64,000 bases of DNA from Acetothermia bacterium UBA3571 (GTDB taxonomy: Bacteria; Bipolaricaulota; Bipolaricaulia; Bipolaricaulales; Bipolaricaulaceae), in NCBI GenBank assembly GCA_002375995.1, contig DFNI01000011.1, positions 13,333-77,332 on the forward strand, read 5' to 3'. Shown one piece after another: positions 5,159 to 61,594 of the stretch. The position numbers and the translations under genes are program-made. The notes under the pieces were generated by a model. It saw only the letters and a program-made list of their open reading frames with translations. It was not told the origin of the DNA and made no database searches. Every line of letters begins with the position of its first letter. Positions within the stretch are counted from its first letter, which is position 1.

Positions 5159-5232
5159 GCGGCCAATGACTCCCAAAGAAGCCGGCGTGGCCTTTCGGCC
5201 ACGCCGGCTTCGCTCGTAACTCTGGACCCACC

Positions 5233-5409
5233 TCAGCCGCAGCAGCCGTGGCTTTCCTCGGGAAGGTAGCGTTCGGGGTCCTTCTCAAAAGCTTCTTTAC
5301 AGCTCGGCCCGCAGAAGTGGTAGGTTTTCCCCTTGTACTCCACTGCCTCCGTGGCCGTGTTGGGATCCACCTCCATACCACACACGGGATCCCGGACCTT
5401 GTCCGCCAT
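5233..5409 (-). CDS. Small YHS/TRASH-domain metal-binding protein (58 aa), below the track's 60-aa cutoff
   Basis: Manual translation: MADKVRDPVCGMEVDPNTATEAVEYKGKTYHFCGPSCKEAFEKDPERYLPEESHGCCG; YHS consensus DPVCGM...YxFCxxxC; RBS GGAGGTGAGGAGAG upstream. Confidence 0.6.
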   Translation of the reverse strand: MADKVRDPVCGMEVDPNTATEAVEYKGKTYHFCGPSCKEAFEKDPERYLPEESHGCCG

Positions 5410-6114: not shown

Positions 6115-6361
6115 GGGTCTCCTTTCGCTCCGAACGGAGTGATATCAAAACACATTCGCATTTTATGCTCGGCGGGAGGGGTAACAACCCTTCCTAGGAA
6201 GTTCCGTGGCCTCTGAATGCAAACTACATCAATAATTTTGGAGCATGCACAGATAAAAATGTCTCCATACAATCTCCACGATCTCTTCATCCTCTCTCCA
6301 CAGCCGTCCAGGAGAATTCCCCTGACCCAATGCGCTACAGCGGAAATCTGGAGGTGATGGA

Positions 6362-7000
6362 ATGGCTCATAGAGGTCGGGCCGTCGGTGTTCTCTTTTTT
6401 ACTGCGTTTTCCGTGTTCGTGGCACTCTTCCCCGTCGCGGCACAGAGCCAGTTACTGGACGAGCTCCGTGCCGAGCTGATACCCGGGGAAGGCGCGAAAA
6501 CTTCCTACGGACTCCCACTGTCCCTCGATAACATCCAGACCTTTGCCGATTGGTACTACTCCATCCAACTGTCTCCGGAGGAGAAGGAGATCTTCCGGGA
6601 AGCCCTTTCGGCCATTCCCGCCCCTTGCTGCGACGACAACCCGGTACTCAAATGCTGTTGCCAGAAAACGAACCGCATCTGTAACCTCACCCGCTCGGCC
6701 ATGGGGCTCGGAGCGTGGCTCATCCACGAAAAGGGCTTTACTGCCGAGGAGACCAAAGCCGCGGTGGAGGAGTGGCTCCGTTTCCTGAGGCCCCAGTACT
6801 ACCTCGCCTTGGCCCTGGAGGAGAGGGGCCTCGATCCCCGGGAATACGGCCTCAAGGAACACGAGGCTTACGAGTCCTGCGATCAAAAGCTCTGCGAGGT
6901 CCCACTGGACGCGGGCGGGTGCGGTGGAATGGGCCTTAAAGTGCTTTTGAAGGAAAAAGAGGAGGTTCCCGCTTGCTGCCGCGCCGAAGGGGGCCAATAA
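6362..7000 (+). CDS. Secreted cysteine-rich protein of unknown family, paralog 1 (PCCDD / CCC / ICNL / CxxxLCE / GGCGGMG motifs)
   Basis: Signal peptide (VFVALFPVAAQSQ); nine Cys conserved with the downstream paralog; no recognisable domain. Confidence 0.6.
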   Translation: MAHRGRAVGVLFFTAFSVFVALFPVAAQSQLLDELRAELIPGEGAKTSYGLPLSLDNIQTFADWYYSIQLSPEEKEIFREALSAIPAPCCDDNPVLKCCCQKTNRICNLTRSAMGLGAWLIHEKGFTAEETKAAVEEWLRFLRPQYYLALALEERGLDPREYGLKEHEAYESCDQKLCEVPLDAGGCGGMGLKVLLKEKEEVPACCRAEGGQ

Positions 7001-9007: not shown

Positions 9008-9374
9008 GGTGAAGGAAAGGCCGGTGGGGGCGTTCGTACTGTCGCTCCTTGCCGGGATCTGGATGGTGGGCGCAGGACTCATGATATACCGTTGGAGCGG
9101 CACCACGTCTTGGATGTGGGGCCACGGGATGATGGGCGGATACCTCGGGTGGGGTCGGTTGCCCTGGTTGGGCTTGATTTTCGGGATCGTGGTCCTCGTC
9201 GGGGCAATCGCTATTTACCTTAGGCCCGACAAAACCTCAGGTTGGGGTATCGCCATCCTGGTGGCCTCCGCCGTGAACGTCCTCTTCGGCATGGGAGGGC
9301 TGCTCGCAGGACTTCTGGGGATCGCGGGTGGAGCGTGGGCCATCGCCTGGAGGCCGGGAGAAGGTGGTGATTGA
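9000..9374 (+). CDS. Hypothetical integral membrane protein (3-4 TM, Trp/Gly-rich)
   Basis: Hydrophobic segments; overlaps the start of the downstream Cu ATPase, which suggests co-transcription. Confidence 0.5.
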
Positions 9375-11611
9375 TCATGGCGGTGAAGGATCCGGTATGC
9401 GGGATGGAGCTCGAGGCGGCCTCGGCCGCCGAGACCCGGGAGTTCCGGGGAAAGACCTACTACTTCTGCTCCTCCTCCTGCGCAGATAAGTTCGATAAAG
9501 AGCCGGAAAAGTACGCCGGTGCCCCTGGTGGAGGCCATGAACACGGGGAGCACGCTGGGCACAGTGGACACGAACATCACGAGTACAAGGCCCATGAGGG
9601 CCACGCCGGCCATGCCAAACACGAAGGCATGGGCCACGGGGAACACGGGCACCACGACCATCACGCCCACCACGCCCAGATGGTGGCTGACTTCCGCCGC
9701 CGGTTCTGGGTCTCCCTAGGCCTCACTGTCCCCATCCTGCTTTTGTCTCCCCTGATCCAAAAATTCTTGGGCCTCCCCAAGGCTTTGGCCTTCCCGGGAG
9801 CTCCCTACCTCCAGCTCGTCCTCGCCTCCGCGGTCTACTTCTATGGCGGCTGGCCCTTCCTCAAGGGCATGTGGGATGAGCTCAGAAAAAAGCAGCCGGG
9901 GATGATGACCCTGATCGCCCTGGCCATCTCGGTGGCCTACGTGTACTCCGCCGCGGTGGTCCTAGGCCTTGCGGGCCAGGTCTTCTTCTGGGAGCTGGCC
10001 ACATTGATCGACGTGATGCTCCTTGGGCACTGGATCGAGATGCGGTCGGTGTTGGGCGCGTCCAAGGCGCTGGAGGAGCTCGCACGCCTCATGCCTTCTA
10101 CCGCCCACCTCCTTAAGGATGGAACGGTGGAGGACGTTCCCATCGAGGTCCTGAAACCCGGCGATCGGGTGCTGGTGAAACCGGGAGAAAAGATCCCCGT
10201 GGACGGCATCGTGATCGAGGGGCGCACCACGGTGAACGAGTCCATGCTCACCGGGGAGTCCCGGCCAGTGGAAAAAGGCGAGGGCGATGAGGTGATCGGC
10301 GGTGCGGTGAACGGGGAGTCGGCCATCACCGTGGAGGTCAAGCGCACCGGGGACGAGACGTATCTCGCGCAAGTGATCGATCTCGTGAGGAAGGCCCAGG
10401 AAGCCCGCTCCAAGACCCAGGACCTCGCCAACCGGGCGGCCCTGTGGCTCACTATCATCGCCCTCGGCGGAGGTGTGGCCACACTCCTCGGGTGGCTGGG
10501 GGCTGGGAAGGATTTCAACTTCGCCCTCACCCGGATGGTCACGGTAATGGTGATTGCCTGCCCGCACGCGCTGGGGCTTGCGATCCCGTTGGTGGTCTCG
10601 GTGTCCACTGCCATCGCCGCCCGGCGTGGGTTCCTCATCCGAGATCGCACCGCCTTCGAGCGGGCGCGCGGGCTTCAGGCAGTGGTGTTCGACAAAACCG
10701 GCACCCTCACCCTGGGCCAGTTCGGGGTCACCGACGTGGTGGCCTTCTCCGAGCTCCCCGAGGAAGAAGTGCTGCGGCTCGCAGCGGCGGTGGAGTCACG
10801 CTCCGAGCACCCCATAGCAGCGGGGATCGTGGCCGCCGCCAAAGAACGGAAGATCGAGATCCCCGAACCCCAGGACGTGAAGGCCATCCCCGGCCGGGGT
10901 GTCGAGGGAAAGCTGGACGGAGAGCCGATCATGGTGGTGAGCCCGAGCTACCTCGCCGAGCAGGGACACGATCCCGACGACCCCCGGGTGGCAGAACTCG
11001 CCTCCCAGGGGAAGACGGTGGTCTACCTCTTGGTGGACGGGAAACCCATAGGGGCCATCGCCCTCGCGGACATGATCCGGCCCGAGTCCCGGGAGGCGGT
11101 GGAGAAGCTAAAGGGGATGGGCATCAAGGTCATGATGCTCACCGGAGACGCCGAAGAGGTGGCCAAGTGGGTGGCCGGCGAGTTGGGCCTCGACCACTAC
11201 TTCGCCCAGGTCCTCCCCCACGAGAAGGCCGAGGTGATCAAGAAGGTGAAGGCTCAAGGGCTTACCGTGGCCATGGTGGGGGACGGGGTGAACGACGCGC
11301 CGGCCCTGGTGGAGGCCGATGTGGGCATTGCCATCGGAGCAGGGACCGATGTGGCCATCGAGTCGGCGGACATCGTGCTCGTGCGCAACGATCCCCGGGA
11401 CATCGCGGCGGTTATCAGCCTCGCCCGGGCCACCTACGGGAAGATGGTCCAGAACCTGGGTTGGGCCACGGGCTACAACTCCTTCGCCATCCCCATGGCC
11501 GCCGGAGCTCTGTACCCGGTGGGGGTGCTGCTTTCGCCGGCGTTGGGGGCGGCGCTGATGGCCCTTTCCACGGTGATCGTGGCCATCAACGCCCGCCTGC
11601 TCAAGGGGTGA
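9371..11611 (+). CDS. copB: Copper-translocating P1B-3 type ATPase (CopB-like) with an N-terminal YHS domain and His-rich stretch
   Basis: N-terminal DPVCGMELE...[12 protein letters not shown] (YHS); His-rich region ([46 protein letters not shown]); TM6 CPH motif ([12 protein letters not shown]); DKTGTLT; GDGVNDAP; TM8 MALST. Confidence 0.9.
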
Positions 11612-13963: not shown

Positions 13964-14470
13964 TCATCGTGGGCCCCTGGGGCCGGGAAGGCAATCCGGT
14001 GGGCCCTGATCGAGGCGTTCCCTGATCTTCTCGGCGATGCGGTCCAGTTCGGTCTTCCGGGCAGCCCTTCTTCCCGGAGTGGCTTCCCCGTAATAGGGGA
14101 TGACGTGGACATGCAGGTGGAAGACTTCCTGGCCCGCGGCGCGGTCGTTAAGCTGCACGATGCGTATCCCCGCGGCCCCCAAAGCCTCCCGCAGTGCCCC
14201 GGCGATCCTCCGTGCCGTGATGAACACCCGTGCTACTTCGGCCTCGGGAAGCTCCCAAATGTGGGCGTAATGGCGTTTAGGGATCACCAAGGTGTGCCCT
14301 TCGTTTATGGGCCTAATATCCAAGAAGGCGAGCACTCCCTCGTTCTCATACACTACGCTCGCCGGGGCTTCGCCACGCACGATCCGGCAAAAGACGCAGT
14401 CCTCCAGAGATTTTGCCCGTGACATGTCGTCCACGATTTTTAGCTGCCACGTGAGAAACTTGGGCGTCAA
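13964..14470 (-). CDS. HIT family (histidine triad) hydrolase
   Basis: CVFCRIVRGE and the HIT motif HLHVHVIP; the probable true start is MSRAK at 14425. Confidence 0.8.
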   Translation of the reverse strand: MTPKFLTWQLKIVDDMSRAKSLEDCVFCRIVRGEAPASVVYENEGVLAFLDIRPINEGHTLVIPKRHYAHIWELPEAEVARVFITARRIAGALREALGAAGIRIVQLNDRAAGQEVFHLHVHVIPYYGEATPGRRAARKTELDRIAEKIRERLDQGPPDCLPGPRGPR

Positions 14471-14473
14471 AGA

Positions 14474-14899
14474 CTATGGAGGGGGCAGATTGAGGTCCGG
14501 CAGTTCCTGGGCCAATTCCTCGAAGAGATCGTCCTCGATGAAAATAGGAGAGCTCATCCGCAAGGCCAAGGCCACCGAATCGGAGGGACGGGCGTCTACC
14601 TTGCGGATTTTCCCAGAAGGAAGGCGGAGCCATAGGTGGGCGTAGCATACCCCCTCCACCACATCCACCAATACCACTCTATCCAGGGAACATCCCAAAG
14701 AATCAAGGAGCGCTTTCATGAGATCGTGGGTGAACGGGCGTGGCGGAGGCGTCCCCTGGAGGTGGAGGAGGATGGCCATCGCCTCCGGTGCACCGATCCT
14801 GAGGGTGATGTAACGGGGAACTACCAGATCTTTCAATAGAAGTATAGGTGCATTAGCTTCGCGATCGAACGCGATCCCCCCGACCACAAGTTCTCTCAT
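14474..14899 (-). CDS. Bifunctional nuclease (BFN/DUF151) family protein
   Basis: LVVGGIAFD...PILLLKD...RPFTHDLM...CYAHLWL are BFN-domain features; start at MRELVV (14899) with RBS GGGGGA 7 nt upstream; the upstream extension of the ORF is probably spurious. Confidence 0.7.
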   Translation of the reverse strand: MRELVVGGIAFDREANAPILLLKDLVVPRYITLRIGAPEAMAILLHLQGTPPPRPFTHDLMKALLDSLGCSLDRVVLVDVVEGVCYAHLWLRLPSGKIRKVDARPSDSVALALRMSSPIFIEDDLFEELAQELPDLNLPPP

Positions 14900-15074
14900 G
14901 TGACATCCCCCGCCAATATAAGTCTCCCCACTTTCGAGGCTAGCGCAATATCCCCGAAACTCATTGTCCATTATAGCGGCCCTTCCCACCCCTTTCTGCT
15001 CTTTCGCCCTTGACAGCGATGAGAAAAGCGATGTACATTGATTTATTCAAAAATCTTCGGGAGGTGGAGAAAGG

Positions 15075-15587
15075 ATGCGAGGCTGGGTTTCAGTGTTATT
15101 GACAGGGCTGTTGGTGTCGCTGGTTGTGGTCCCCACGCTGGGTGCAAAGAGGTGCGAGTGGATCTACCAAGGAGACGACAACCTGGAGGCCACCGAACTC
15201 CTCGCCGAGTTCCTGGAGGATCACGAGGTGGACGTGTACTCGGTGCGGGATTACTTCGTGGTGGTACAGGACAGGTTCAAGGTACTATTAGAGCCGAAGA
15301 TGTCCACTGATGGGCTCGATCGCGTTGTCGCCCATGTGATCTTTTCGGTAAAGGATTTCTATAAGGGCTCCCGCACCCTCCTCAATTTCGTTAACGGTTT
15401 AAACCAAAAGTACAACATCGGTGCCTTTTACATAAATGAAGACGGCGACTTCGCGTTTCAGACGCAGCTAACCTTCCTCGATCATGTGTGCTGGGACGAG
15501 TTGGGCGCGTTTGTAGAGTGGGTGAACAAAAGCTTGTACGCCATTATAAAGGTCAATGAGGATGATTTCACGAAATATCTGAAATGA
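15075..15587 (+). CDS. YbjN-like (putative sensory-transduction regulator / T3SS-chaperone-like fold) protein with an N-terminal signal peptide
   Basis: Distant YbjN-family resemblance (weak); GC is notably lower than that of neighbouring genes. Confidence 0.5.
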   Translation: MRGWVSVLLTGLLVSLVVVPTLGAKRCEWIYQGDDNLEATELLAEFLEDHEVDVYSVRDYFVVVQDRFKVLLEPKMSTDGLDRVVAHVIFSVKDFYKGSRTLLNFVNGLNQKYNIGAFYINEDGDFAFQTQLTFLDHVCWDELGAFVEWVNKSLYAIIKVNEDDFTKYLK

Positions 15588-15592
15588 CGGCG

Positions 15593-17296
15593 CTATTTCA
15601 GTATTCCTAAGAGCTTCTCCCAGGGGAGGGTGTTGATCACGTCCTCCGCCTCGGCCCAGCCGCGGCGGGCCGTGAGGACCCCGTAGCGCATGAATCGCAG
15701 ATGATCGGGGTGATGGGCATCGGTGCCCAACGCCAGCTTCACCCCGGTGTCGATGGCCTCCCGGATGTGTTCGGCACACAGATCCAGGCGCTGGGGGTTG
15801 GCATTCACCTCGAGGATCGTCCCATATTTAGCCGCCCGGCGGAACACTTCTTCCCAATCCACATCATAGGCCGAGCGCTCGCCGATGAGGCGGCCGCTGG
15901 GGTGGGCGATGATGTCCACGTCTTCGTTCTCAATGGCCGAAAGGATTCTTTTCGTCATGTCCTTCTTCGGCATCCGCATATGGGTATGTACCGCCGCCAC
16001 CACCACATCCAGCTCCCGTAAAAGCTCCCGGGGAACGTCGATGGTGCCGTCGGGGAGGATATTGGCCTCGATTCCGCAAAGGAGTCTAAAGCCTTTTAAC
16101 TTCCGATTGAGCTCCTGGATCGCTTCCATTTGCCGCACGAGCTCTTCAGGGCCCAGCCCGGGGATCGCCTGGGCGAAGCGGAAGTGGTCCACGATGGCGA
16201 TGTAACGGTAACCTAGCTCCATGCCGGCCTGTGCCATCTCCTCCAGCGACCCTTTGCCGTCGGACCAGTTGGTGTGGACGTGGAGGTCCCCCAGGATCTG
16301 GTCGGGCTCGACAAGCTTGGGGAGCTTTCCCTCCTCGGCTGCCTGGATTTCCCCGCGGTCCTCCCGCAGTTCCGGCGGTATCCAGGGAAGTCCCAAGGCT
16401 TTGTAGACTTCCGCCTCATCGCGGCCGGCTACCCGCTCTTTCCCTTTGAACACCCCGTATTCGTTGAGCTTGAAGCCTAGGGAAACCGCTCGCTCCCGCA
16501 GGCGGATGTTGTGGGCCTGGGATCCGGTGAAGTACTGGAGCGCGGCCCCGAACGATTCGGCAGGCACGATCCGCAGGTCCACCTGGATACCGTCGGCCAA
16601 ACGCACCGATGTTTTCTTCGGTCCCTTCGCTAACACTTCCTCAACATCCGGAAGGGAGGCGAAGGTGTCGGACGCCTCTTCTGGGCGATCGGATATCCCG
16701 AGGATGTCGATATCGCCAATGGTCTCCTTCCCGCGGCGGAGGGACCCGGCGATCTCTACCGCCTTGAAGAGGCCGCTTTCCCGGAGCTTCTCCCGGATCC
16801 CCTCGGCCAGCGGAAGGGCATAGCCGAGGAGCACCCGCTTCTCCGTCCTCCTGGCCTCAGCCAGGCCCCGCAGGATCTTTTCCTCTACCTTGGGCCCAAG
16901 GCCTGGCACGGTGCGGATGCGGTGCTCCCGGGCGGCCCGCTCGAGGTCGTCCAAGTTCTTCACCCCCAGATGCTCATAGAGCAATTTGGCGATTTTCGGC
17001 CCCACCCCCTCCACTTGGGTAAGGGAGTAAAGGTCCACGGGGAGTTTCTTCTTGAGCTCCTCGTGGTAGCGGAGCCTCCCGGTTTTCACAATCTCTTCGA
17101 TTTTGTCGGCGATGGATTTCCCCACCCCCGGAAGCTCCGTCACCCTTCCCTCACGCACCAGGTCCTCGATGGGGACGGGACAGGATTCCACCGCCTGCGC
17201 GGCCCGGCGGTAGGCCCGGGGCTTGAACTCCACCCCCTCTAACTCCAGGAGGTCCGCGACTTCATAGAGGATTTGGGCGACCTTCCGGTTCTGCAT
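15593..17296 (-). CDS. polX: DNA polymerase/3'-5' exonuclease PolX (Pol beta-like nucleotidyltransferase plus C-terminal PHP domain)
   Basis: N-terminal HhH/Pol-beta fingers (GVGPKIA, GSLRRGKETIGDIDIL) and a C-terminal PHP domain (HVHTNWSDG, DHF). Confidence 0.9.
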   Translation of the reverse strand: MQNRKVAQILYEVADLLELEGVEFKPRAYRRAAQAVESCPVPIEDLVREGRVTELPGVGKSIADKIEEIVKTGRLRYHEELKKKLPVDLYSLTQVEGVGPKIAKLLYEHLGVKNLDDLERAAREHRIRTVPGLGPKVEEKILRGLAEARRTEKRVLLGYALPLAEGIREKLRESGLFKAVEIAGSLRRGKETIGDIDILGISDRPEEASDTFASLPDVEEVLAKGPKKTSVRLADGIQVDLRIVPAESFGAALQYFTGSQAHNIRLRERAVSLGFKLNEYGVFKGKERVAGRDEAEVYKALGLPWIPPELREDRGEIQAAEEGKLPKLVEPDQILGDLHVHTNWSDGKGSLEEMAQAGMELGYRYIAIVDHFRFAQAIPGLGPEELVRQMEAIQELNRKLKGFRLLCGIEANILPDGTIDVPRELLRELDVVVAAVHTHMRMPKKDMTKRILSAIENEDVDIIAHPSGRLIGERSAYDVDWEEVFRRAAKYGTILEVNANPQRLDLCAEHIREAIDTGVKLALGTDAHHPDHLRFMRYGVLTARRGWAEAEDVINTLPWEKLLGILK

Positions 17297-17299
17297 CCC

Positions 17300-17503
17300 T
17301 CAAGCTCCCCCGTAAAGTTGGGCGAAGCGGCGAAAAGAGCGGTCGTAGGTGCGTTCCACCTCTGGAGGGAAGCAACAGGCCGGAAGCTCCTGATGCGCGA
17401 GATGGTAATGAAGACACTCGCAACAGATACCCTTCCGCGGACAATTTGGCCAAGTGCAGGGACACCTCTCAAGGTTCCGAGCCTGGTTCACGCACTCCGC
17501 CAT
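17300..17503 (-). CDS. Small cysteine-rich protein (67 aa; CPCTWPNCPRKGICCECLHYH)
   Basis: Start at MAECVNQ with RBS GGAAAGGAGG; the stop overlaps the polX start (operon). Confidence 0.5.
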   Translation of the reverse strand: MAECVNQARNLERCPCTWPNCPRKGICCECLHYHLAHQELPACCFPPEVERTYDRSFRRFAQLYGGA

Positions 17504-17554
17504 GGGGCCTCCTTTCCGGGTCTTGAGTTTGTGCTTGGGTATAATGCGCAAGCT

Positions 17555-18769
17555 ATGGAAAAAACACAAGAAATCCTGGAGACGATCCGAAAGGACACCG
17601 GGGGACTACGCCCCCACTACGAACGCTACTCCCTCTTGGCAGTGGCCGATACCATCCTCGATATATTCGATGTGCCCCAGGGGGGTCGGTCGCTGCGGGA
17701 GGAATTGGGGATCGCGCGGGCCGAGAAGGCGGTGAGCTTCATCGTGGACGGGCTGGGGTACCTCAAGCTAGAGGACCTCGTTGAGAAAGGCCTCGTGGAC
17801 CTTTCACTTTTTGACGTCTATATTCCACTCACCTCGGTCTTTCCTCCCACCACTACCACCGCGCTCACGAGCCTCTCCACCGGGGTGAGCCCCGTCGTCC
17901 ACGGGATCCTGGGCTACAAGCTCTTCCTCCGCGAGGTCGGCGCGGTGGTGAACATGATCAAACTCTCTACCCCCGGCGCCCCCAGTGACTCCATCAAGAA
18001 CGTGGGCGTGGAGTTGGAAAAGTTCGTCGCCGTTCCCACCATTTACGAGCGCCTGAAGGAGAGAGGGGTGAAGTCATATCTCTTTTTGCCCAAGTACATC
18101 GTGAATTCCGGGCTTTCGGGAATACTGTATCGTGGTGTAGAAGAGATCGTTCCCTTCATCAGCCTTTCCGACCTCTTCGTGTTGTTGAAGGAAGCGTTAC
18201 AACGGCCGGAGAGGGCATTGCTGGGGGTGTACTGGCCGGTCACCGACACCCTAGGGCACCTTTACGGCCCTGAGTCGGAGCCGTTTTCCCGGGAAGTTTC
18301 CCTATTTTTCCGCACTATGGCTGAGGCCTTCCTGGGACGAGGAACGGGAGTTCCGGTATTGGTGACCGCGGACCACGGGTTCGTGGGGATAGACCCTGAG
18401 GCTGACCTCATCGACGTCAAAGCGAGTCCAGAGCTCATGAGCTCCATTATCTTTCAGCCCGTGGGCGATTTGCGCGCGGGGTACTTCTTCGTGCGGGAGG
18501 GAAAGAAGGAGGTGGTGCGGGAGTACCTCGAGCGGAAGTATCCCGGGGAATTCCTGGTGATGGACACCGAGGAGGCCTTGGAGGGGAAGCTCTGGGGGCT
18601 GGAGGAGCCCGATGAGGGGGTGCGGGCGCGCCTGGGGAATATTGTGGCGCTGGCCCGGGGACGGAAGCTCTTTTTCTGGCCGGAAGGCGAGGAGTTCGTA
18701 CTGCGCGGGATGCACGGCGGGCTCACCGATCGAGAACTCCTCGTCCCTTTCCTCATCTCCCATGCATGA
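17555..18769 (+). CDS. Alkaline phosphatase superfamily / type I nucleotide pyrophosphatase-phosphodiesterase-like protein
   Basis: PPTTTTALTSLSTGVSPVVHGILGY (metal-ligand Thr nucleophile region) and VTADHG are typical of the NPP/AlkP-core family; start taken at the internal ATG (MEKTQEI). Confidence 0.75.
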   Translation: MEKTQEILETIRKDTGGLRPHYERYSLLAVADTILDIFDVPQGGRSLREELGIARAEKAVSFIVDGLGYLKLEDLVEKGLVDLSLFDVYIPLTSVFPPTTTTALTSLSTGVSPVVHGILGYKLFLREVGAVVNMIKLSTPGAPSDSIKNVGVELEKFVAVPTIYERLKERGVKSYLFLPKYIVNSGLSGILYRGVEEIVPFISLSDLFVLLKEALQRPERALLGVYWPVTDTLGHLYGPESEPFSREVSLFFRTMAEAFLGRGTGVPVLVTADHGFVGIDPEADLIDVKASPELMSSIIFQPVGDLRAGYFFVREGKKEVVREYLERKYPGEFLVMDTEEALEGKLWGLEEPDEGVRARLGNIVALARGRKLFFWPEGEEFVLRGMHGGLTDRELLVPFLISHA

Positions 18770-19134
18770 AAGGAGGCTCCATGGCGGTGGTCAAGCGGAT
18801 CTCTGAGGTGGAGGCACGGGACATCTCCGATGGCACGGAGGTCGTCAACGTGGTGAAACAGCTGCTCATCGGGCCCAAAGACGGGGCCCCCACGTTTGCG
18901 GTGCGGCTCTTCACGTTGGGCGCGGGAGGACATACCCCGAAACACAGCCATCCCTTCGAGCACGGGGTGTTGGTGTTGGAGGGAAAAGGAGAGCTGTGGA
19001 CCGAGCAAGGAACCCACGGGCTCTTCCCTGGCACGGTGGTCTTCGTCGCCCCAAATGAGAATCACCAGTTTTTGAACACCGGGTCCAGTCCCCTCAAGTT
19101 CATTTGTATCGTGCCCAAGCACGTGGAGGAGTAA
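18766..19134 (+). CDS. Cupin domain protein
   Basis: Cupin_2 motifs (HSHPFEHGVLVLEG...GTVVFVAPNENHQF); 4-bp overlap with the upstream gene. Confidence 0.75.
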   Translation: MKGGSMAVVKRISEVEARDISDGTEVVNVVKQLLIGPKDGAPTFAVRLFTLGAGGHTPKHSHPFEHGVLVLEGKGELWTEQGTHGLFPGTVVFVAPNENHQFLNTGSSPLKFICIVPKHVEE

Positions 19135-19141
19135 GCGGCGT

Positions 19142-20191
19142 ATGGCCGAAAAGGTCCTCGTGGGGATGTCGGGGGGCGTAGACTCCACTGTCTGCGCCTA
19201 TCTCCTTTTGGAGCAGGACTACCGCGTGTACGGCCTCACCCTCTGGCTTTGGGATCCCAAGGGGCCATATGAGAACCAGTGCTGTTCTGTAGACGCGGCT
19301 TCCTTGGCTGCCAGGGAGCTCGGCATCCCCCACGAGACCGTTCAAGCCCACCGGGAGTTCCGCAAGCTCGTGATCGAGCCCGCCCTGCGGGCATACAGGG
19401 AAGGGAAAACGCCCAATCCGTGTACCTTCTGCAACCGCGAGGTGAGGTTCGCCCTCCTTTTACGGGAAGCCGAGAAACGCGGCATCCCCTACATCGCCAC
19501 CGGCCACCACGCGAGGATCCGCGAGCGAGGCGGAAAGCGTGTTCTCCTGAGGGGACGGGATCCGACAAAGGACCAATCCTACTTCCTTTATTCGCTTACC
19601 CAAGAAGAGCTTTCCCAGGCCATTTTTCCCATAGGGGAGCTGACCAAAGAGGAGGTCAAGCGGATCGCCCGGGAGAAGGGCTTCACCGCCGCTTACCTCC
19701 ACGAATCCCAGGACCTCTGCTTCGCGCCGCGGGGGATCGGGGAGCTCGTCCCGGATGCCCCATCGGGCCCCATTGTGGACCTTTCAGGAAGAGTTTTGGG
19801 CTCACACAGAGGGCTTCCCCACTATACCGTGGGCCAGCGGCGGGGCCTGGGGATTTCCACCGGCGAGCCCCTGTATGTGGTGGCCCTGGATCCGGTTCGG
19901 AACGCAGTGGTGGTGGGGCCGGAGAGCGCCCTTTACGCCGAGGGCCTTGTGGCGGGGGAGCTTACCTGGATCGTCGGGGAGCCCCCGGGGGAGCAGTTCT
20001 CCTGCGAGGTACAGATCAGGTACCGGGCTTCCCCGGTGCGTTGCGAAGTAGAACTCCGGGATAACAAAGCTTACGTCAAGTTCGAGAAGGCCCAGCGGGC
20101 GGTGACCCCCGGCCAGGCAGCGGTCTTCTACCGCGGGGAGGAGGTCCTGGGCGGCGGCGTCATCGAACGCCCCCTGAAAGGGGGGCCTTAG
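19142..20191 (+). CDS. mnmA: tRNA-specific 2-thiouridylase MnmA
   Basis: PP-loop (VGMSGGVDSTV), the catalytic Cys region, and overall MnmA architecture. Confidence 0.9.
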   Translation: MAEKVLVGMSGGVDSTVCAYLLLEQDYRVYGLTLWLWDPKGPYENQCCSVDAASLAARELGIPHETVQAHREFRKLVIEPALRAYREGKTPNPCTFCNREVRFALLLREAEKRGIPYIATGHHARIRERGGKRVLLRGRDPTKDQSYFLYSLTQEELSQAIFPIGELTKEEVKRIAREKGFTAAYLHESQDLCFAPRGIGELVPDAPSGPIVDLSGRVLGSHRGLPHYTVGQRRGLGISTGEPLYVVALDPVRNAVVVGPESALYAEGLVAGELTWIVGEPPGEQFSCEVQIRYRASPVRCEVELRDNKAYVKFEKAQRAVTPGQAAVFYRGEEVLGGGVIERPLKGGP

Positions 20192-20265
20192 CCTACGGGA
20201 AGCGGCCCCGAGGTCAGCTACACGATCAAAGGGGACGTCACTCCCAGTCCCGTTCGGGGTGAAAC

Positions 20266-20300
20266 CAAAAAGGAGGCCGGGGATCCCGGCCTCCGGGTTT
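20266..20300. terminator. Bidirectional rho-independent terminator (AAAAA-GGAGGCCGGG-gatc-CCGGCCTCC-GGGTTT) between the convergent mnmA and TIP49 genes
   Basis: Perfect 10-bp stem flanked by an A-run and a T-run. Confidence 0.6.
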
Positions 20301-20327
20301 GCTCGCAAATCGGTCCGAAAGCTCGCG

Positions 20328-21689
20328 TTACGCCAGGAGCCTTTCCTCGTATTCCCGCAGATATCGGGTGCTCTTCCTCACGTCGGCAAAAAGCCCCTTC
20401 ACGCGCTCCACGTCCTCGGGGGTTATCTTCCCGTGGCCGTTTTCTCTGGCCACTTCCGCCGCGGGCCGAATCATCTGAACCGCATACCGAAGCGAGCTTT
20501 CGGCCCCGATCCGAGTTAGGAGTTCCAGCGCCTCCTCCTCGGCTTCCACCCCTTCCTCACGCATCCTGATCGTTAAGATCTCTCGGACTTCCTCGGCCTT
20601 ATAGGGACGCGTGGTGATGATGAGGAGGCGATCCAGGAGGTCCAGAGGGATCCCGTGGGGGGAAGAAATATCGGTCCCCCGGACCTTGGTCACGCCGCGG
20701 TTGCTGGCGAGGATGATCACCGGGGCCAGTTCCGATTCCATGGCCCGATTGAGGAAGGCGAAGGCTTCGATATCCAGCATGGCCACTTCATCTATGAAAA
20801 GGACCCCGGGTATGATCTCGGCGGTCCCCTCTTCTACCCTCTCCTTCACCATCTCGTCTACCCGCTGCCGCACCTCGGGATCGATCTCGGCACGCTCGGG
20901 GGCCCCGAAGAAAAGGGAAAGCATTCCCCCGCCCCGACGGGCGTTTATCTCGTCCAGGTCGTTCAGGGTCATGGTGTAGACGAACTCCTTTTCTTTCTCC
21001 ACCGGCCCGGTGGGACGGGGGACCGGCTTCTCGGAGGCCGCGGCGATCTCGTACGTCTCGGAAGCCTTCTCGGAACGCCCCACGCGGATCACGCGGCCCG
21101 TTTCCGCATCGATCTGGATCACGTCGCCCATGGAGATCCCCTGGTTGATCATGGAGACAGTAATGGAGCTTCCCACGTTAAAGGTGCGCCGGTCGTCGGT
21201 GGTCTCCAGGGTCAGGCGGGCGGACTCGGGGATCTGTTGGTAGGGGTTATAGGGATGGCGAGCGAGCTTCACATCGAAGGCAGTCACCTCGCCCTCGTAG
21301 ACCTTGCGGAGCTCGTGGAGCCTGACGCCGATGGCCTTACGCATGGCCTGCATGAGGACCTCCGTTTTCTTCATCTCCGCGGAGTAGATCTCGGACCCGC
21401 TCAAGGAAACAAACGGGACATCGGCCCCGAGCTCCCGGGCGATGGCGATAGCGATGGCTGTCTTCCCCGTGCCCGGAGGACCGGCCAGGAGGATGGCCCG
21501 GCCGGCCATCCGGCCTTCTTTTATCATGCGGACCACGATCCCCGCGGCCTCCCGGGCCTCGGTCTGTCCCACCATACCGTCGGCCACGGGGCGGGCCTTG
21601 AGGCCATCCAACCCTAAGCCCTTGATGTGGCTGTGGGCGCCGATCCTCTCGAATTTCTCACCGGAAATGGGTTTTATCTCCGCCGCCAT
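20328..21689 (-). CDS. TIP49/RuvB-like (RuvBL1/2, Pontin/Reptin-type) AAA+ ATPase
   Basis: Near-colinear match to RuvBL N-terminus (IGAHSHIKGLGLD...GQTEAREAAGIVVRMIKEGRMAGRAILLAGPPGTGKTAIAIAIARELG...FVSLSGSEIYSAEMKKTEVLMQAMRKAIGVR); Walker B (FIDEVAMLD); about 450 aa with the domain II insertion. Confidence 0.85.
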   Translation of the reverse strand: MAAEIKPISGEKFERIGAHSHIKGLGLDGLKARPVADGMVGQTEAREAAGIVVRMIKEGRMAGRAILLAGPPGTGKTAIAIAIARELGADVPFVSLSGSEIYSAEMKKTEVLMQAMRKAIGVRLHELRKVYEGEVTAFDVKLARHPYNPYQQIPESARLTLETTDDRRTFNVGSSITVSMINQGISMGDVIQIDAETGRVIRVGRSEKASETYEIAAASEKPVPRPTGPVEKEKEFVYTMTLNDLDEINARRGGGMLSLFFGAPERAEIDPEVRQRVDEMVKERVEEGTAEIIPGVLFIDEVAMLDIEAFAFLNRAMESELAPVIILASNRGVTKVRGTDISSPHGIPLDLLDRLLIITTRPYKAEEVREILTIRMREEGVEAEEEALELLTRIGAESSLRYAVQMIRPAAEVARENGHGKITPEDVERVKGLFADVRKSTRYLREYEERLLA

Positions 21690-21968
21690 CCTGCACCTCC
21701 TTCCGGATAAGCACCGTCCGGAAACCCGAAGGATCGTTGGGATCGTCCAAGTAAAGGGCGCTTTTTATCGCTAGCCGGGCCCAGGATTTCGGGCCTCCCG
21801 AGCCCTGTCCCACTTTCCCACCAATTATAGAAAAACTTTGCAAAGGTAGCAGTGCAAGGTTTTTTTCGCTTTCCCTACGCCCACGGTCCAGGGAGGACCG
21901 AGCTATCCTGGGCCTCCACAAGCGAACGGTACCATTGACCCTTGCGGTTCCTGGCGTAAAAGTAGGTT

Positions 21969-22760
21969 GTGTTTCTGAGAAGGTTCAAGCGGAGGAGATT
22001 GCGATCTTCGGAATTTCCCGCTTCCTGGGTTTCCACCTTGGAGCGGAACTTCCTCCATTATCGACTGCTTCCGGAAGAAGACCTGCAGGAGCTCTTCGGC
22101 CACATCCTCGTCTTCCTCCACGAGAAGAAGTTCTTCGGGGGCGGCGGATTCGAGGTGACGGAAGAGGTGAAGGTGACGGTGGCGGCGTATGCCTGTTTAC
22201 TTCTTTTGCACCGGGAGACCAATTACTTCCCGCGCATGCGCACCGTGGTGGTTTACCCTACCGAGTACCTAGCCCCCTATCGGGAGGAAGATCCCATCGG
22301 CGTGGTGGTGGAGGGATACCAGGTCCGATCTGGGGAGGCGTGGCAGCGGGGGCCGGTGGTGTTGTCGTGGGAGGCGGTGTTGCGGGACTCCCAGCGGGCC
22401 CGGGGATGCCGGCACGTGGTGATCCACGAGTTCGCGCACCAGCTGGATTACGAGAGCGGGAGCGCCGAGGGGACACCGGCCATCGGGGGAAGGTTGCCGG
22501 CGGAGGAATGGCGCCGGGTGATGCGGGCGGAATACCGACGCCTGCGCCGGGAAGCTCTCTTGGGGAGGCCCACCCTCCTCGATCGCTATGGGACCACGAG
22601 CCCTGCGGAGTTCTTCGCCGTGGCGGTGGAGGCGTTCTTCATGTGCCCCCAAAGGCTTCACCAACGGCATCCCGACCTCTACAGGTCTTTGGCGACGTTC
22701 TTCCGCCAGAACCCTGCCACGGACTGGCATCATCCGCCCGAGGTGGAGAAGCTGGGCTGA
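21969..22760 (+). CDS. MtfA-like zinc-dependent peptidase (Peptidase_M90 family)
   Basis: HExxH motif (VIHEFAHQLD) in an MtfA-like context (GEAWQRGPVVLSWEAV). Confidence 0.7.
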   Translation: MFLRRFKRRRLRSSEFPASWVSTLERNFLHYRLLPEEDLQELFGHILVFLHEKKFFGGGGFEVTEEVKVTVAAYACLLLLHRETNYFPRMRTVVVYPTEYLAPYREEDPIGVVVEGYQVRSGEAWQRGPVVLSWEAVLRDSQRARGCRHVVIHEFAHQLDYESGSAEGTPAIGGRLPAEEWRRVMRAEYRRLRREALLGRPTLLDRYGTTSPAEFFAVAVEAFFMCPQRLHQRHPDLYRSLATFFRQNPATDWHHPPEVEKLG

Positions 22761-22774
22761 AAAAGGAGGAAAAA

Positions 22775-23638
22775 ATGCGGCTTCCTAGTATCTTCGCGGT
22801 CTTCCTGCTTTTAAATCTCTCCACGATGGGGGAAGAACTCGTGGAGAGCACGGGGCTTTGGGCCGTCGACGGCGACACCATCGTGGTGGAGATAGCCGGC
22901 AAACGGGATGAGCTTAGGATCATGGGGATTGACGCGGTGGAGCGGCAAGGATGCTTAGGGAAGGAAGCGGTGGAGTTTGCGCAGGGATTGATAACGCGCA
23001 CTCTCTGGCTCGAGCTCGATCCGGAAAAGGGCCTCGAGCGCCGGGACCGGAACGGGAGGCTCCTCGCCCACGTCTTCCTTGCCCCGGTACAGACCCCGGG
23101 GTCGTCGCTGGCCGTAACCTTGGTCAGGGAAGGCTTCGCCAAGCTGGACGTCCGGGACGTGAAGGACATCTGGGGCGAGGACTATTTCGATATCCGCTAT
23201 ACCCCTTGGATCATCCACGCGCAGATCCTGGCCGCCCTCGAGAGGCAAGGGTGGTGGGGAGAATGTGACCCCCTCCTCGATGCGGACCTCGTGATCGCGG
23301 CGATAAAACATTGGGGAAATGATGAAATCGTGTACATCGTGAACCGTGGAAACGAGGTTCTGGACCTTGCCGCCGGTTGGGCCCTCACCAGCCATCCTTC
23401 ACAGGCCCTGGATTTCGGCCGCTATACCCGCGAGCTCCTCCTCCCGCCCGGTTGGATCCTCCGGGTTCACACCGGCCCGATTAACTCCGGTCGCAAGGGG
23501 GAGTTCGTGGTGAACCGAGAGGCAGGGCTCATCGATTGGTACTGGACCGGGCGAAAGATCTGGCGTCGTGAGGGAGATGTGGCGCAGCTGATCTTTGGTG
23601 AAACTGTGGTGTATGAATATCGCTACCCCGAGCGTTAA
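22775..23638 (+). CDS. Secreted staphylococcal-nuclease (SNase/thermonuclease)-like protein with a C-terminal domain of unknown function
   Basis: Signal peptide; SNase-like segment (VDGDTIVVE...IRIMGIDAVERQG...RLLAHVF); start at MRLPSIF with RBS AAAAGGAGGA. Confidence 0.6.
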   Translation: MRLPSIFAVFLLLNLSTMGEELVESTGLWAVDGDTIVVEIAGKRDELRIMGIDAVERQGCLGKEAVEFAQGLITRTLWLELDPEKGLERRDRNGRLLAHVFLAPVQTPGSSLAVTLVREGFAKLDVRDVKDIWGEDYFDIRYTPWIIHAQILAALERQGWWGECDPLLDADLVIAAIKHWGNDEIVYIVNRGNEVLDLAAGWALTSHPSQALDFGRYTRELLLPPGWILRVHTGPINSGRKGEFVVNREAGLIDWYWTGRKIWRREGDVAQLIFGETVVYEYRYPER

Positions 23639-23641
23639 GAC

Positions 23642-24802
23642 TCAACGCTTTCGACGCTGAAGCGCAGCCTCGAGGGAGCGGATGAGCCGAGCCACGGAAT
23701 CGGTGCGGAGTTCGATGGCACCGTATCGGCAGGCTTCGTGACAGCACATACACCGAATGCAACTCCGCCGATCTATCCGCGCGCGCCCGCCGTCGATCGC
23801 GGCGGCCCCTGTGGGGCAGGCGCGCACACAGGCCCCGCAGCCCACGCACCTTTCCAACACCACCACGGGACGTGCCTGTAGGTGCCGGGTGGCCCAGCGG
23901 GTAAGGATCCGGGGGAGGCGCCCCAATGCCTCCCCCGCTGCCGGTGGCAACCGGAAATTCTCCACCCTAACCGAGGCCATCTCCTCTCCCACGACCTCGA
24001 TCTCCGCAGGATCCCCGGTCCCTAAGCCCCGGTCGTGGGCGTGGCGGGTGGTCCAGACCCGCAGGGGCTCGAGACCCACGATGGACTGGGCCACGGCATC
24101 CACCGCCACCGCGTCTTCCCCAGCGACGATGAGACCGATCTCCCGGGGGGCCCCGTTGGCGGGCCCAGCGCCCTCCATTCCCACCACTGCGTCCATAATC
24201 GTGAGGGCTGGCCGCGCTACTGAGAAGATGTCTACGAGGAGTTGGCAGAACTCCGCGGGTCGAGGATGGTCCCCGTGGAACCGGGTGCGGAGCCCCGCGG
24301 GGACGACGCCGTAAAAGTTCTTCACCGCACCGGTGAACAAGGTGAGGGAGTGGGTCTTGAGCTTGGGGAGGTTCACAATTACGTCAACCTCGAGAAGGGC
24401 TCTGGCAATATAGACCTTATCCAAAACCGCGCCGTCCACCTCAACCTCTGTAAACCCCTTTTCCCGCAGATTCAGAAGCTCCACTCCCAACCGGGCGCAG
24501 GTCTCGCGGTAGCCGGAGACCTCAAAGCTTCGGGGGTCGTGCACGTCGTCCCCCACAGTGATGTGAGGGGTGATCTCGCGCAGGAGGGAAAGGACGGCCT
24601 CCGTGAAGGCCGGGTGGGTAATAATGGCGCGTTCCGGGGGCGAGGGCGGTGGGAGGAGGTTCACCTTCACGAACACCTCGGCGCCCCGGGAGACAAACCG
24701 CTCCAAGCCCCCGATCATATCCAGGGCACGCCCCACCGCGTCGCGCAGCCCGGAGGACCTATAGCCTTCCGCCCGCACCACCGCCACCCGGGTGTTGGCC
24801 AT
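23642..24802 (-). CDS. DUF362 domain protein with a C-terminal 2x[4Fe-4S] ferredoxin domain
   Basis: DUF362 N-terminal region; CxxCxxCxxxCP motifs (CVGCGACVRACP; CIRCMCCHEACRYG). Confidence 0.7.
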   Translation of the reverse strand: MANTRVAVVRAEGYRSSGLRDAVGRALDMIGGLERFVSRGAEVFVKVNLLPPPSPPERAIITHPAFTEAVLSLLREITPHITVGDDVHDPRSFEVSGYRETCARLGVELLNLREKGFTEVEVDGAVLDKVYIARALLEVDVIVNLPKLKTHSLTLFTGAVKNFYGVVPAGLRTRFHGDHPRPAEFCQLLVDIFSVARPALTIMDAVVGMEGAGPANGAPREIGLIVAGEDAVAVDAVAQSIVGLEPLRVWTTRHAHDRGLGTGDPAEIEVVGEEMASVRVENFRLPPAAGEALGRLPRILTRWATRHLQARPVVVLERCVGCGACVRACPTGAAAIDGGRARIDRRSCIRCMCCHEACRYGAIELRTDSVARLIRSLEAALQRRKR

Positions 24803-24823
24803 CGCCTACGGAACTAGGGACCT

Positions 24824-26080
24824 TTACCCTATGAGCTTTCGGGGATCGGTGATCTTCCCGGTGACGGCGGCCGCGGCGGCCACCGCGGGGGAGGCCAGGT
24901 ACACCTCGGCCTCCGGGGACCCCATCCGGCCCTTGAAGTTCCGGTTGGAGGTGGAGACGCAGGCCTCGCCCGGGGCCAACACTCCCTCATGGGCCCCGAG
25001 ACACGGCCCGCACCCGGGGTTCAGGACCAACGCCCCCGCGGCGGCGAATCTCTCGAGCAGACCCTCCTTGGCCGCCTCGACCCACACCTCCCGCGATGCC
25101 GGGAGCACCAGCATCCGGACCCCCTCAGCCACCGGACGCTCCCCCATCACCTCCGCCGCCAGCCTCAGATCCTCTAGTCGGCCGTTGGTGCAGGTTCCCA
25201 GGACCACCTGGTCCACTTTTATCCCCTCCACCTCGGAGACCGGCACCACGTTGTCCACGGTGTGGGGACAAGCCACCTGGGGCGGAAGGTCCGAAAGATC
25301 GAACCGATACACCTCCTCATAATCCGCGTCGGGGTCGGGATAGATGGGCTCGTAATCGGTGACCCCCCGCTCTCGGAGGTACGAGAAGGTGGTCTCGTCG
25401 GGGGCGACGTAGCCGTTCTTGGCCCCCATCTCCGCGGCCATGTTGCAGAGGACGAGCCGCTCGGAGATGGACATCCCCTCCACCAGCGGGCCGGCGAACT
25501 CCACCGAACGGTAGAGGGCCCCGTCGGCCCCGAGCTTTCCGATGAGGTGGAGGATCACGTCCTTGGCCACAACAAGCTCCGGGAGCGTCCCGGAAAGCTC
25601 GATCCTGATGGTGGTGGGGACCTTGAGCCAGAGCTTCGAGGTGGCCCACAAGGCCGCCATCTCGGAGCGGCCGATCCCGGCGGAGAACGCCCCCAACGCC
25701 CCGTAGGTGGTGGTGTGGGAGTCCGCCCCCAGGATCAGCCACCCGGGGCGCGCCAATCCCTCCTCCACCACCACCTGGTGGCACACACCCCGGCCAACGT
25801 CGTAGAACCGGATCCCCTGCGCCCGCACGAACTCCCGGATCTCCTTGTGGTTCTCAGCGTACTGCACCTGGGCGGCGGGGACGACATGGTCCAGGATCAC
25901 CACGAACCGCTCCGGCTCCCGCACCCGCGCTAGGCCCAGTTTCCCGAAGATCTTCTTGATGGCGGCGGTGTTGTCGTGGGACATCCCCAGGTCCGGAGTG
26001 GCCTCCACGATCTGTCCCGGGACGGCCTCCCGAAGCTCCGCCTTCCGCGCCAGGATCTTCTCCGCGAACGTCTTCCCCAT
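24824..26080 (-). CDS. Aconitase-family dehydratase large subunit (3-isopropylmalate dehydratase/homoaconitase LeuC-type)
   Basis: MGKTFAEKIL start and the Fe-S Cys ligand regions (GTCTNGR, NPGCGPCLG) typical of the short archaeal-type LeuC/HACN large subunit; no small subunit is adjacent. Confidence 0.8.
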   Translation of the reverse strand: MGKTFAEKILARKAELREAVPGQIVEATPDLGMSHDNTAAIKKIFGKLGLARVREPERFVVILDHVVPAAQVQYAENHKEIREFVRAQGIRFYDVGRGVCHQVVVEEGLARPGWLILGADSHTTTYGALGAFSAGIGRSEMAALWATSKLWLKVPTTIRIELSGTLPELVVAKDVILHLIGKLGADGALYRSVEFAGPLVEGMSISERLVLCNMAAEMGAKNGYVAPDETTFSYLRERGVTDYEPIYPDPDADYEEVYRFDLSDLPPQVACPHTVDNVVPVSEVEGIKVDQVVLGTCTNGRLEDLRLAAEVMGERPVAEGVRMLVLPASREVWVEAAKEGLLERFAAAGALVLNPGCGPCLGAHEGVLAPGEACVSTSNRNFKGRMGSPEAEVYLASPAVAAAAAVTGKITDPRKLIG

Positions 26081-58747: not shown

Positions 58748-58764
58748 CCGTCACGCGTTACGCG

Positions 58765-61517: not shown

Positions 61518-61594
61518 GCGCCCGTAGCTCAGCAGGACAGAGCAGCGGCTTCCTAAGCCGCAGGTCGGAGGTTCGAGTCCTCCCGGGCGTACCA
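61518..61594 (+). tRNA. tRNA-Arg (anticodon CCT), CCA encoded
   Basis: Manual cloverleaf: acceptor GCGCCCG/CGGGCGT, D-arm GCTC..GAGC, anticodon loop TTCCTAA, T-loop TTCGAGT. Confidence 0.85.

Follow-up and report, generated by a model that had tools for sequence, protein, structure and literature searches.

Proteins of the TIP49 family (RuvBL1/RuvBL2, also named Pontin/Reptin or Rvb1/Rvb2) are AAA+ ATPases that are essential in eukaryotes, where they act in chromatin remodellers and in the assembly of small nucleolar ribonucleoproteins, phosphatidylinositol 3-kinase-related kinases and RNA polymerase. How does an intact gene of this family come to reside in a bacterial genome, and what might it do there? 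The question is raised by a 64,000-nucleotide stretch of contig DFNI01000011.1 (positions 13,333 to 77,332 of the forward strand; assembly GCA_002375995.1, Acetothermia bacterium UBA3571), which is referred to as the window throughout. On its reverse strand, at positions 20328-21689, lies an open reading frame (ORF) with an ATG start that encodes 453 amino acids and that an initial annotation had taken for a TIP49 (RuvBL1/2-like) AAA+ ATPase, colinear with Pontin/Reptin, in an otherwise bacterial context. Our analysis makes it highly probable that this gene is an archaeal-type, single-copy TIP49 which a subclade of the Bipolaricaulota obtained from a bathyarchaeon related to S4B2_HD70 and has since inherited vertically and under constraint.

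The identity of the protein as a full-length member of the TIP49 family is confirmed by each sequence and structure test applied. The TIP49 P-loop domain (PF06068) matches residues 15-365 over profile positions 1-346 of 347 (E 1.1e-147; 492 bits against a gathering cutoff of 23.8), and the TIP49_C AAA-lid, domain III (PF17856), is covered over all of its 66 positions (1-66; E 5.4e-22, 78 bits). In phmmer searches against the sequences of the PDB the top matches were RuvBL2 chains (9eq2_D, 3.9e-134; human 5oaf_B, 7.9e-132), with RuvBL1 coming next at about 1e-122, RuvBL2 being slightly closer to the protein than RuvBL1 (451 versus 421 bits). These alignments are collinear over residues 9-452 and, therefore, include the domain II insertion, in line with the colinearity that had been claimed. 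NCBIfam holds no TIP49 model. Its two RuvB equivalogs, NF000868 (36.4 bits; cutoff, 282) and TIGR00635 (32 bits; cutoff, 299), match far below threshold and only over residues 36-94; thus, the protein is not a RuvB, and the match to Pfam RuvB_N (2.5e-09, residues 37-94) is a weak similarity around Walker A. Similarly, membership in a defence ATPase family was rejected (best PADLOC match mad8, 8.9e-08, 30 bits, residues 62-305, the matches being mostly short P-loop alignments near Walker A), as was membership in a phage family, since the best PHROGs match, a clamp loader (6.8e-11, residues 39-121), is essentially that of a generic P-loop. The protein does not belong to the eukaryotic RuvBL1 or RuvBL2 clade either: in a tree rooted on eukaryotic RuvBL2 it falls among the single-copy TIP49s of archaea. 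Our scans revealed one TIP49 locus per assembly and no paralog pair. The gene is thus the single-copy, pre-duplication archaeal form and not a eukaryotic Pontin or Reptin. Of the label 'eukaryote/archaea-type' given in the initial annotation, the archaeal part stands and can be narrowed to Bathyarchaeial, while the eukaryotic part has to be dropped.

The motifs of the family, whose invariance was judged in an alignment of 54 sequences, are present in order along the reverse strand. The conserved N-terminal segment RIGAHSHIKGLGL (residues 15-27, 21609-21647) contains the family motif GAHSHI(K/R)GLGL as GAHSHIKGLGL, in which H19, S20, H21, G24, L25 and G26 are invariant; the stretch IGAHSHIKGLGLD that had been quoted earlier as the N-terminal segment corresponds to residues 16-28. 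By analogy with published work on RuvBL1/2, this histidine segment would serve as a nucleotide gate. The Walker A and Walker B boxes are likewise present, as had been noted. Walker A, GPPGTGKT (residues 70-77, 21459-21482), is invariant, and Walker B reads IDEVA (residues 299-303, 20781-20795) with D300 and E301 invariant and DEVA instead of the usual DEVH. Sensor 1 (Asn330, 20700-20702), the arginine finger (Arg354 within LLDR, 20628-20630) and sensor 2 (Arg401 within SLRYA, 20487-20489) are invariant as well. The catalytic set is, accordingly, complete, the fourth Walker B position being alanine and not histidine. An AlphaFold2 monomer model computed on the same alignment (mean predicted local distance difference test score, 84.8; predicted template modelling score, 0.72) showed residues 121-241 to be mostly beta strand and residues 365-452 to form a helical bundle. 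The former, located between Walker A and Walker B (20967-21329; beta strands assigned by DSSP in the model), constitute a beta-rich, OB-fold-like domain II, an insertion that in this family measures about 120-170 residues. With Foldseek, 435-445 columns of the model aligned to the RuvBL1/2 chains of SRCAP, SWR1, TIP60 and INO80 structures at template modelling (TM) scores of 0.65-0.81, and the domain II insertion, for which the earlier annotation had proposed a structure prediction, adopts the same fold as that of RuvBL. The conserved arginine finger, if acting in trans, fits assembly into a ring, although it does not prove it.

That the host is a bacterium, Candidatus Bipolaricaulota (Acetothermia), is confirmed by the bacterial large signal recognition particle (SRP) RNA in the window (61693-61957, 116 bits) together with nucleotide identity to two other contigs: positions 14330-25040 (10.7 kb) are 99.07% identical to an independent metagenome contig of the Joint Genome Institute (JGI), L084, and about 90% identity extends over 5.4 kb to a contig of a Candidatus Bipolaricaulota metagenome-assembled genome (MAG), L001. 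Of the bacterial neighbours named in the initial annotation, mnmA (19142-20191) and polX (15593-17296, about 3 kb from the 3' end of the TIP49 gene) were found again, as was a gene for a molybdopterin oxidoreductase that, together with a NuoF-like gene (56051-60627), looks like a formate dehydrogenase. Neither the RNA, the neighbours nor the nucleotide matches point to an archaeal contig. The identical protein is present on four public contigs, the longest measuring 153 kb, and 21 contigs carry a close variant under the label 'RuvB-like helicase [Candidatus Bipolaricaulota bacterium]'.

A scan of the species representatives of GTDB, with one genome per species and tblastn at E<=1e-30, yielded 72 matching loci, only four of which are labelled bacterial and all four of which fall into one tight Bipolaricaulota-type group. 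These are Bipolaricaulota AUK134 (L001), another Bipolaricaulota genome (L002), a fragment labelled 'Caldisericota' (L070) and Acetothermia JdFR-48 (L004), at 99%, 91%, 91% and 88% identity to the window protein, respectively. A single locus labelled 'Bathyarchaeota', S4B2_HD70 (L003), follows at 87%, and the about 65 others, from Thermoproteota-type archaea, Archaeoglobi and Njordarchaeota, range between 53 and 73%. A search of protein databases agreed with this: it yielded eight clusters with identities of 87-98%, one of them from Ca. Bipolaricaulota sp. J31 with a chromosome of 1.887 Mb, and then a drop to 73% or less, below which all named matches, including those at 62-73%, are archaeal with the exception of a RuvBL2 from Quercus suber (50%). 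Among themselves the bacterial copies are 86-99% identical, and they share 85-90% with the bathyarchaeal copy. TIP49 is, as had been remarked earlier, rare in bacteria; a common, vertically inherited bacterial clade, which would have taken the novelty from the finding, is not seen, vertical inheritance being confined to a small subclade of the Bipolaricaulota.

Two of these labels deserved a closer look. Downstream of TIP49 the 'Caldisericota' contig (JAADIW010000088.1) is syntenic with JdFR-48 and J31, with proteins 68-91% identical, and for this reason we count it among that bacterial lineage; probably its bin carries a wrong label or the contig was mis-binned. The host of L003 is genuinely archaeal. 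The flanks of the gene encode an isoprenyl-diphosphate synthase, an ATPase of the FlaI type, a membrane protein of the FlaJ/UpsF type and an archaeal KaiC (TIGR03881, 370 bits); the same context, with a CDP-archaeol synthase in addition, recurs in an independent Logan assembly (L081), and the corresponding archaeal protein cluster has seven members on contigs of up to 387 kb. In public records the protein appears under the names 'RuvB-like helicase', 'TBP-interacting protein' and sometimes, wrongly, 'TATA box-binding protein'. The last name is carried by records in Ca. Acetothermia and by one fragment in 'Ca. Micrarchaeota'; it takes 'TBP-interacting protein 49' for TBP, and automated surveys that look in bacteria for transcription factors of archaea could be led astray by it. 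Since public databases already annotate the protein, its occurrence is on record; the family is known and the host domain is new, and our literature search found no paper on TIP49 in Bipolaricaulota or any other bacterium.

Mislabelled bins such as the 'Caldisericota' contig and the 'Micrarchaeota' fragment, and source communities that hold both Bathyarchaeia and Bipolaricaulota, are what one would cite for an artefact, that is, an archaeal fragment mis-assembled or mis-binned into bacterial MAGs. We regard this reading as effectively refuted. The gene is enclosed by bacterial sequence within its contig in no fewer than five independent assemblies, obtained in different projects, among them the J31 chromosome and contigs of 596 kb and 153 kb. 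Its GC content at third codon positions (GC3) is 0.80 in the window, where the neighbouring genes have 0.72-0.89, and it is matched to the host in each bacterial genome (0.80-0.89), unlike that of the archaeal copy, which is 0.62 in a genome of 51% GC. The gene is furthermore equipped with a strong Shine-Dalgarno sequence and an intrinsic terminator.

To place the bacterial copies, a neighbour-joining (NJ) tree was calculated from 75 archaeal, bacterial and eukaryotic sequences (438 columns, Kimura distances, 200 bootstraps), with eukaryotic RuvBL2 as the outgroup. Two bacterial groups, A (the window, L001, P0002 and L002) and B (JdFR-48, J31, P0003 and P0004), form one clade with the archaeal pair L003/P0008 at 100% bootstrap support, and this clade is nested in an assemblage of Bathyarchaeia and Nitrososphaeria (88% support), to whose TIP49s it has about 70% identity. 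The phylogeny that had been proposed as a check thus sets the bacterial copies among archaeal ones. Among labelled loci, the Walker B variant DEVA, where the majority has DEVH, occurs only in this clade, including L003, and in the Bathyarchaeia L009 and L017; the remaining Bathyarchaeia have DDVS. DEVA is thus a further sign, independent of the tree, of a Bathyarchaeial origin.

Within the clade the branching order bears on how many transfers took place and in which direction. Two independent transfers from archaea to bacteria, one for each group, or a back-transfer from a Bipolaricaulota bacterium into S4B2_HD70 that replaced its native copy, appear possible to us, though rather unlikely. In the full set, NJ joins L003/P0008 to group B at 86%, distant outgroups give this same topology and not bacterial monophyly, L003 is about as close to group B (89-90% identity) as group A is to group B, and the two kinds of organism co-occur. 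With the nearest outgroup, however, 230 of 300 bootstraps recover the bacterial copies as a monophyletic group, the only two strictly informative sites both support bacterial monophyly (patterns 2:0:0), and L003 is closer to the other Bathyarchaeia, as represented by L050, than are the bacterial copies (75% versus 71-73%). As NJ bootstraps, outgroup subsampling and site patterns disagree, the direction of transfer was judged from the gene neighbourhoods as well as from sequence. In L003 a KaiC-type cluster (4402-6940) lies 2-6 kb from TIP49; the cluster is found, inverted, near TIP49 in the Nezhaarchaeales and other TACK loci L023, L024 and L116, and a homolog of one of its genes is located about 9 kb upstream of TIP49 in L006. 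This loose linkage hints at a native archaeal position of the TIP49 gene of L003, which speaks against a back-transfer. Eleven residues, mostly in domains II and III, are fixed in all bacterial copies and differ in the archaeal pair.

Against two separate transfers stands the insertion neighbourhood that groups A and B have in common, which two events would not predict. On its upstream side L001 has the genes of the window, encoding an M90 peptidase, an SNase-like protein, a DUF362 protein and an aconitase, and on its downstream side those of J31, JdFR-48 and L070, encoding a nucleoside kinase, DUF4004 and bactofilin proteins, a DUF4097 protein and a transporter of the major facilitator superfamily (MFS). 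L001 links both sides, and therefore groups A and B hold TIP49 at one homologous locus; this in turn favours a single insertion with vertical inheritance and local rearrangement, so that one ancestral insertion followed by vertical descent is the most likely course. The window itself has the mnmA/polX side in place of the nucleoside kinase, DUF4004 and bactofilin block of L001, J31 and JdFR-48. The homology of about 90% at the nucleotide level to L001 and L085 stops at position 20261, directly past the terminator hairpin of TIP49, and the arrangement of the window at this breakpoint is confirmed by the independent contig L084.

The nucleoside kinase flanking TIP49 also gives an indication of where the gene is absent. 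Its identity is 83-96% among the genomes that carry TIP49 and falls to 60-75% in many other Bipolaricaulota. Three of the four kinase orthologs (63-75%) inspected elsewhere in the phylum reside in a conserved arrangement of CN_hydrolase, Zincin/HEPN, Macro, kinase and flavin reductase genes, and in none of the inspected Bipolaricaulota, including the closed genome of Ca. Bipolaricaulis sibiricus, was TIP49 found near the kinase within the 1.4-7 kb of flank on each side. A clean 'empty site' could not be defined in these distant relatives, as the kinase sits in a rearranged context. The pattern fits an acquisition in one subclade alone. Bathyarchaeia and Bipolaricaulota live in common hot, anoxic habitats and were reported together in a 70 °C culture from the Guaymas Basin (PMC10811742); in addition, the contig L084 and that of JdFR-48 stem from the same JGI metagenome. 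A mobile element or virus as the vehicle was rejected, as 50,697 phage records and 72,556 plasmid records contained no tblastn match.

Once acquired, the gene has been kept under strong purifying selection. Among the bacterial copies the ratio of nonsynonymous to synonymous substitution rates (dN/dS, or ω) is 0.02-0.12 at dS values of up to 1.18, synonymous sites being saturated in comparison with L003. The constraint is equal across both halves of the ATPase core, domain II and the lid (ω mostly 0.05-0.12; domain II, 0.06-0.12), and the translated full-length copies contain neither frameshifts nor stops. The host-like GC3 and a low dN/dS at high dS clearly point to a gene that is old in this lineage and functional. 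A neutral passenger, or a gene on its way to being lost and without function in bacteria, could be considered, given that the known partner systems are not expected in bacteria and that no operon is conserved; but constraint of this degree in every domain over a dS of about 1.2, intact reading frames and the conservation of all catalytic residues make this very improbable.

The gene has the appearance of a stand-alone transcription unit. A strong Shine-Dalgarno sequence, read from the sequence as GGAAGGAGGTG (21694-21704, reverse strand), ends its AGGAGG 6 nucleotides before the ATG. On the other side, 34 nucleotides past the stop codon, the sequence could form an intrinsic-terminator-like hairpin, GGAGGCCGGG-ATC-CCCGGCCTCC followed by TTTTTGGTTT (20262-20294, reverse strand), with a stem of 10 pairs, 9 of them GC; TIP49 and mnmA are convergent. 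A -10-like TATAAT (21824-21829, reverse strand), about 135 nucleotides upstream of the ATG, is conserved in the closest relative, L001. It has no canonical -35 element and, because a consensus scan found no full sigma-70 site, it is regarded as a candidate promoter. Directly upstream of it, two TTGCA(C/A) hexamers, 14 nucleotides apart (21838-21857, reverse strand), are partly conserved in L001; without canonical -35 spacing, the pair could be an operator or part of an unusual promoter. The upstream region is conserved solely between the window and L001, the other bacterial lineages having unrelated sequence there, which disposes of a common upstream regulatory element or operator. A structured 5' leader or RNA thermometer was likewise rejected: the 141-nucleotide leader is no more stably folded than shuffled versions of it (z = +0.95), and it has no match in Rfam.

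What such a protein might do in a bacterium can be approached from its conserved parts. As the ATPase site, the arginine finger, the histidine segment and domain II are conserved together and equally constrained, the protein would most likely act as a homo-hexameric, ATP-driven scaffold or assembly chaperone. In the course of events that we propose, an ancestor of a small thermophilic subclade of the Bipolaricaulota would have acquired TIP49 from a bathyarchaeon close to S4B2_HD70, most likely once, and passed it on vertically, with its composition fully adjusted to the host, its expression presumably stand-alone and its sequence under strong purifying selection. By analogy with RuvBL1/2, the product should form a homo-hexameric ring that binds and hydrolyses ATP between neighbouring subunits, to which Arg354 would contribute in trans, and the nucleotide state would be coupled via the N-terminal histidine segment and the protruding domain II to the binding and release of client macromolecules. 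TIP49 would thus not work as a processive helicase but as a scaffold or assembly chaperone driven by ATP.

As to the clients, INO80, SWR1/SRCAP, TIP60 and R2TP/PAQosome are eukaryote-specific partner complexes and cannot be meant here, and one would not expect a bacterium to have partners of the archaeal type, such as TBP/TFB and box C/D proteins, although no genome search was made for them. A client that is universally present therefore appears the more plausible. In Sulfolobus acidocaldarius, TIP49 co-purifies with TFB3, TFB1 and subunits of RNA polymerase (PMC6101591), and in a kinase pull-down from S. islandicus it was recovered with Cdc48, thermosome, prefoldin and Hsp20 (PMC5682000). On account of the Sulfolobus pull-down it might be speculated that RNA polymerase is a candidate client. 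We tentatively suggest, as a possibility to which we give limited weight, that TIP49 has been kept for a partner-independent core activity on a universal client, e.g. in assembling or remodelling, at high temperature, multisubunit RNA polymerase or a different large nucleoprotein or protein complex. In that case, these Bipolaricaulota would represent a natural minimal TIP49 system without INO80, SWR1, R2TP, TBP and box C/D, and would expose the ancestral function of Pontin and Reptin.

A different role, that of a DNA helicase or of a RuvB-like branch-migration or repair factor working with the nearby PolX and SNase-like nuclease, we consider improbable, if less so than a neutral passenger. In its favour are the original description of TIP49 proteins as RuvB-like helicases, the OB-like fold of domain II and the location of polX about 3 kb from the 3' end of the gene and of the SNase-like gene about 1 kb upstream. 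These neighbours are, however, not kept among relatives: already in L001 the mnmA/polX side is different, and the upstream genes of J31 and JdFR-48 are entirely different. The genes are, moreover, on different strands, TIP49 has a Shine-Dalgarno sequence and a terminator-like hairpin of its own, and the RuvB equivalog score is far below its cutoff (36 versus 282 bits). Structural work on RuvBL1/2 has also indicated a scaffold rather than a translocating helicase.

Some points weigh against our preferred reading, a single acquisition from a bathyarchaeon followed by vertical descent, with a role as scaffold or assembly chaperone. Besides the association of L003/P0008 with group B and the topologies given by distant outgroups, the absence of TIP49 from other Bipolaricaulota is deduced from local contexts and the names of matches and not from whole-genome searches. 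The bacterial loci have no conserved neighbour, operon partner or regulatory element in common, their flanks differing by subgroup, and in 63 archaeal TIP49 loci no neighbour family was present in more than 11, the recurring ones being lineage-specific. The gene neighbourhood was thus discarded as a clue to function. The archaeal proteins have been characterised by pull-downs only (PMC6101591, PMC5682000), and the functional part of our reading is inference.

The other genes annotated around TIP49 serve ordinary bacterial metabolism and maintenance. Apart from those mentioned above, they comprise genes for a type I phosphodiesterase, a cupin, a DUF362/ferredoxin protein, an aconitase-family protein, CitF, P-type ATPases and an SMC protein. 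Next to TIP49, an M90 (MtfA-like) peptidase is encoded at 21969-22760 (PF06167, 7.7e-81), followed by the SNase-like protein with a signal peptide at 22754-23638, which gave a weak match to the PADLOC candidate 'SNc+LTD' (5.5e-09). A 567-residue ORF at 21935-23638 in the mechanical list is an artefact, these two being the real genes. Three tRNA genes are present in the window. Two of them, for tRNA-Arg(CCT) (61518-61594) and tRNA-Ser(GGA) (61599-61689), precede the SRP RNA with gaps of 4 and 3 nucleotides, and such close spacing suggests one co-transcribed precursor. The SMC homolog (SMC_N and hinge, 48089-50581) has 830 amino acids. Bacterial SMC proteins typically have about 1,150-1,200, which implies either much shorter coiled-coil arms or a start truncated by the simple ORF call. 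Two P-type heavy-metal ATPase paralogs (789-2939 and 9371-11611) lie within 9 kb of each other; they are 37% identical and differ in the N-terminal domain, which is HMA in one and YHS in the other.

Transfer of genes between domains is common among thermophiles, and the present case is real and well supported: the gene has plainly crossed between domains, its donor lineage can be identified, and donor and recipient lineages share hot, anoxic habitats. No new mechanism is shown by it. The case adds a well-documented example of transfer from archaea to bacteria. To our knowledge, what TIP49 did before the partner complexes of eukaryotes arose has not been established, and few studies have dealt with its archaeal homologs. 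An intact archaeal TIP49 that is kept in bacteria shows that the protein can be useful outside the archaeo-eukaryotic cell context, and its retention therefore narrows the possible core clients to things that bacteria also have. Thus, the TIP49 of the Bipolaricaulota offers a simpler experimental setting and a handle on the ancestral role of Pontin- and Reptin-type proteins.

Compared with known systems, the protein shares with RuvB, the motor of Holliday-junction branch migration, the AAA+ P-loop core and, as predicted for TIP49, a hexameric ATPase. RuvB, in contrast, is devoid of the domain II insertion and normally occurs together with ruvA and ruvC, which the TIP49 locus does not, and TIP49 scores far below the RuvB equivalog cutoffs. 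Much closer is the TIP49 of the Bathyarchaeia (S4B2_HD70, L003/P0008), which at 85-90% identity has the same length of 453 amino acids, DEVA at Walker B and the same domain layout, and which, like the bacterial copies, is a stand-alone gene with no conserved partner. The bacterial copy differs from it by its bacterial host and flanks, by a GC3 of 0.80 versus 0.62, by its strong Shine-Dalgarno sequence and intrinsic terminator, and by the eleven fixed residue differences. With RuvBL1 and RuvBL2 the bacterial protein has 45-50% identity, a collinear sequence including domain II, the same Walker A, the D-E of Walker B, the sensors, the arginine finger and the N-terminal histidine motif, as well as a fold that aligns at TM scores of up to 0.81. 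Whereas eukaryotes assemble a 1:1 hetero-hexamer of the two proteins, the bacterial TIP49, with DEVA and not DEVH, is encoded by a single gene and, for this reason, presumably forms a homo-oligomer.

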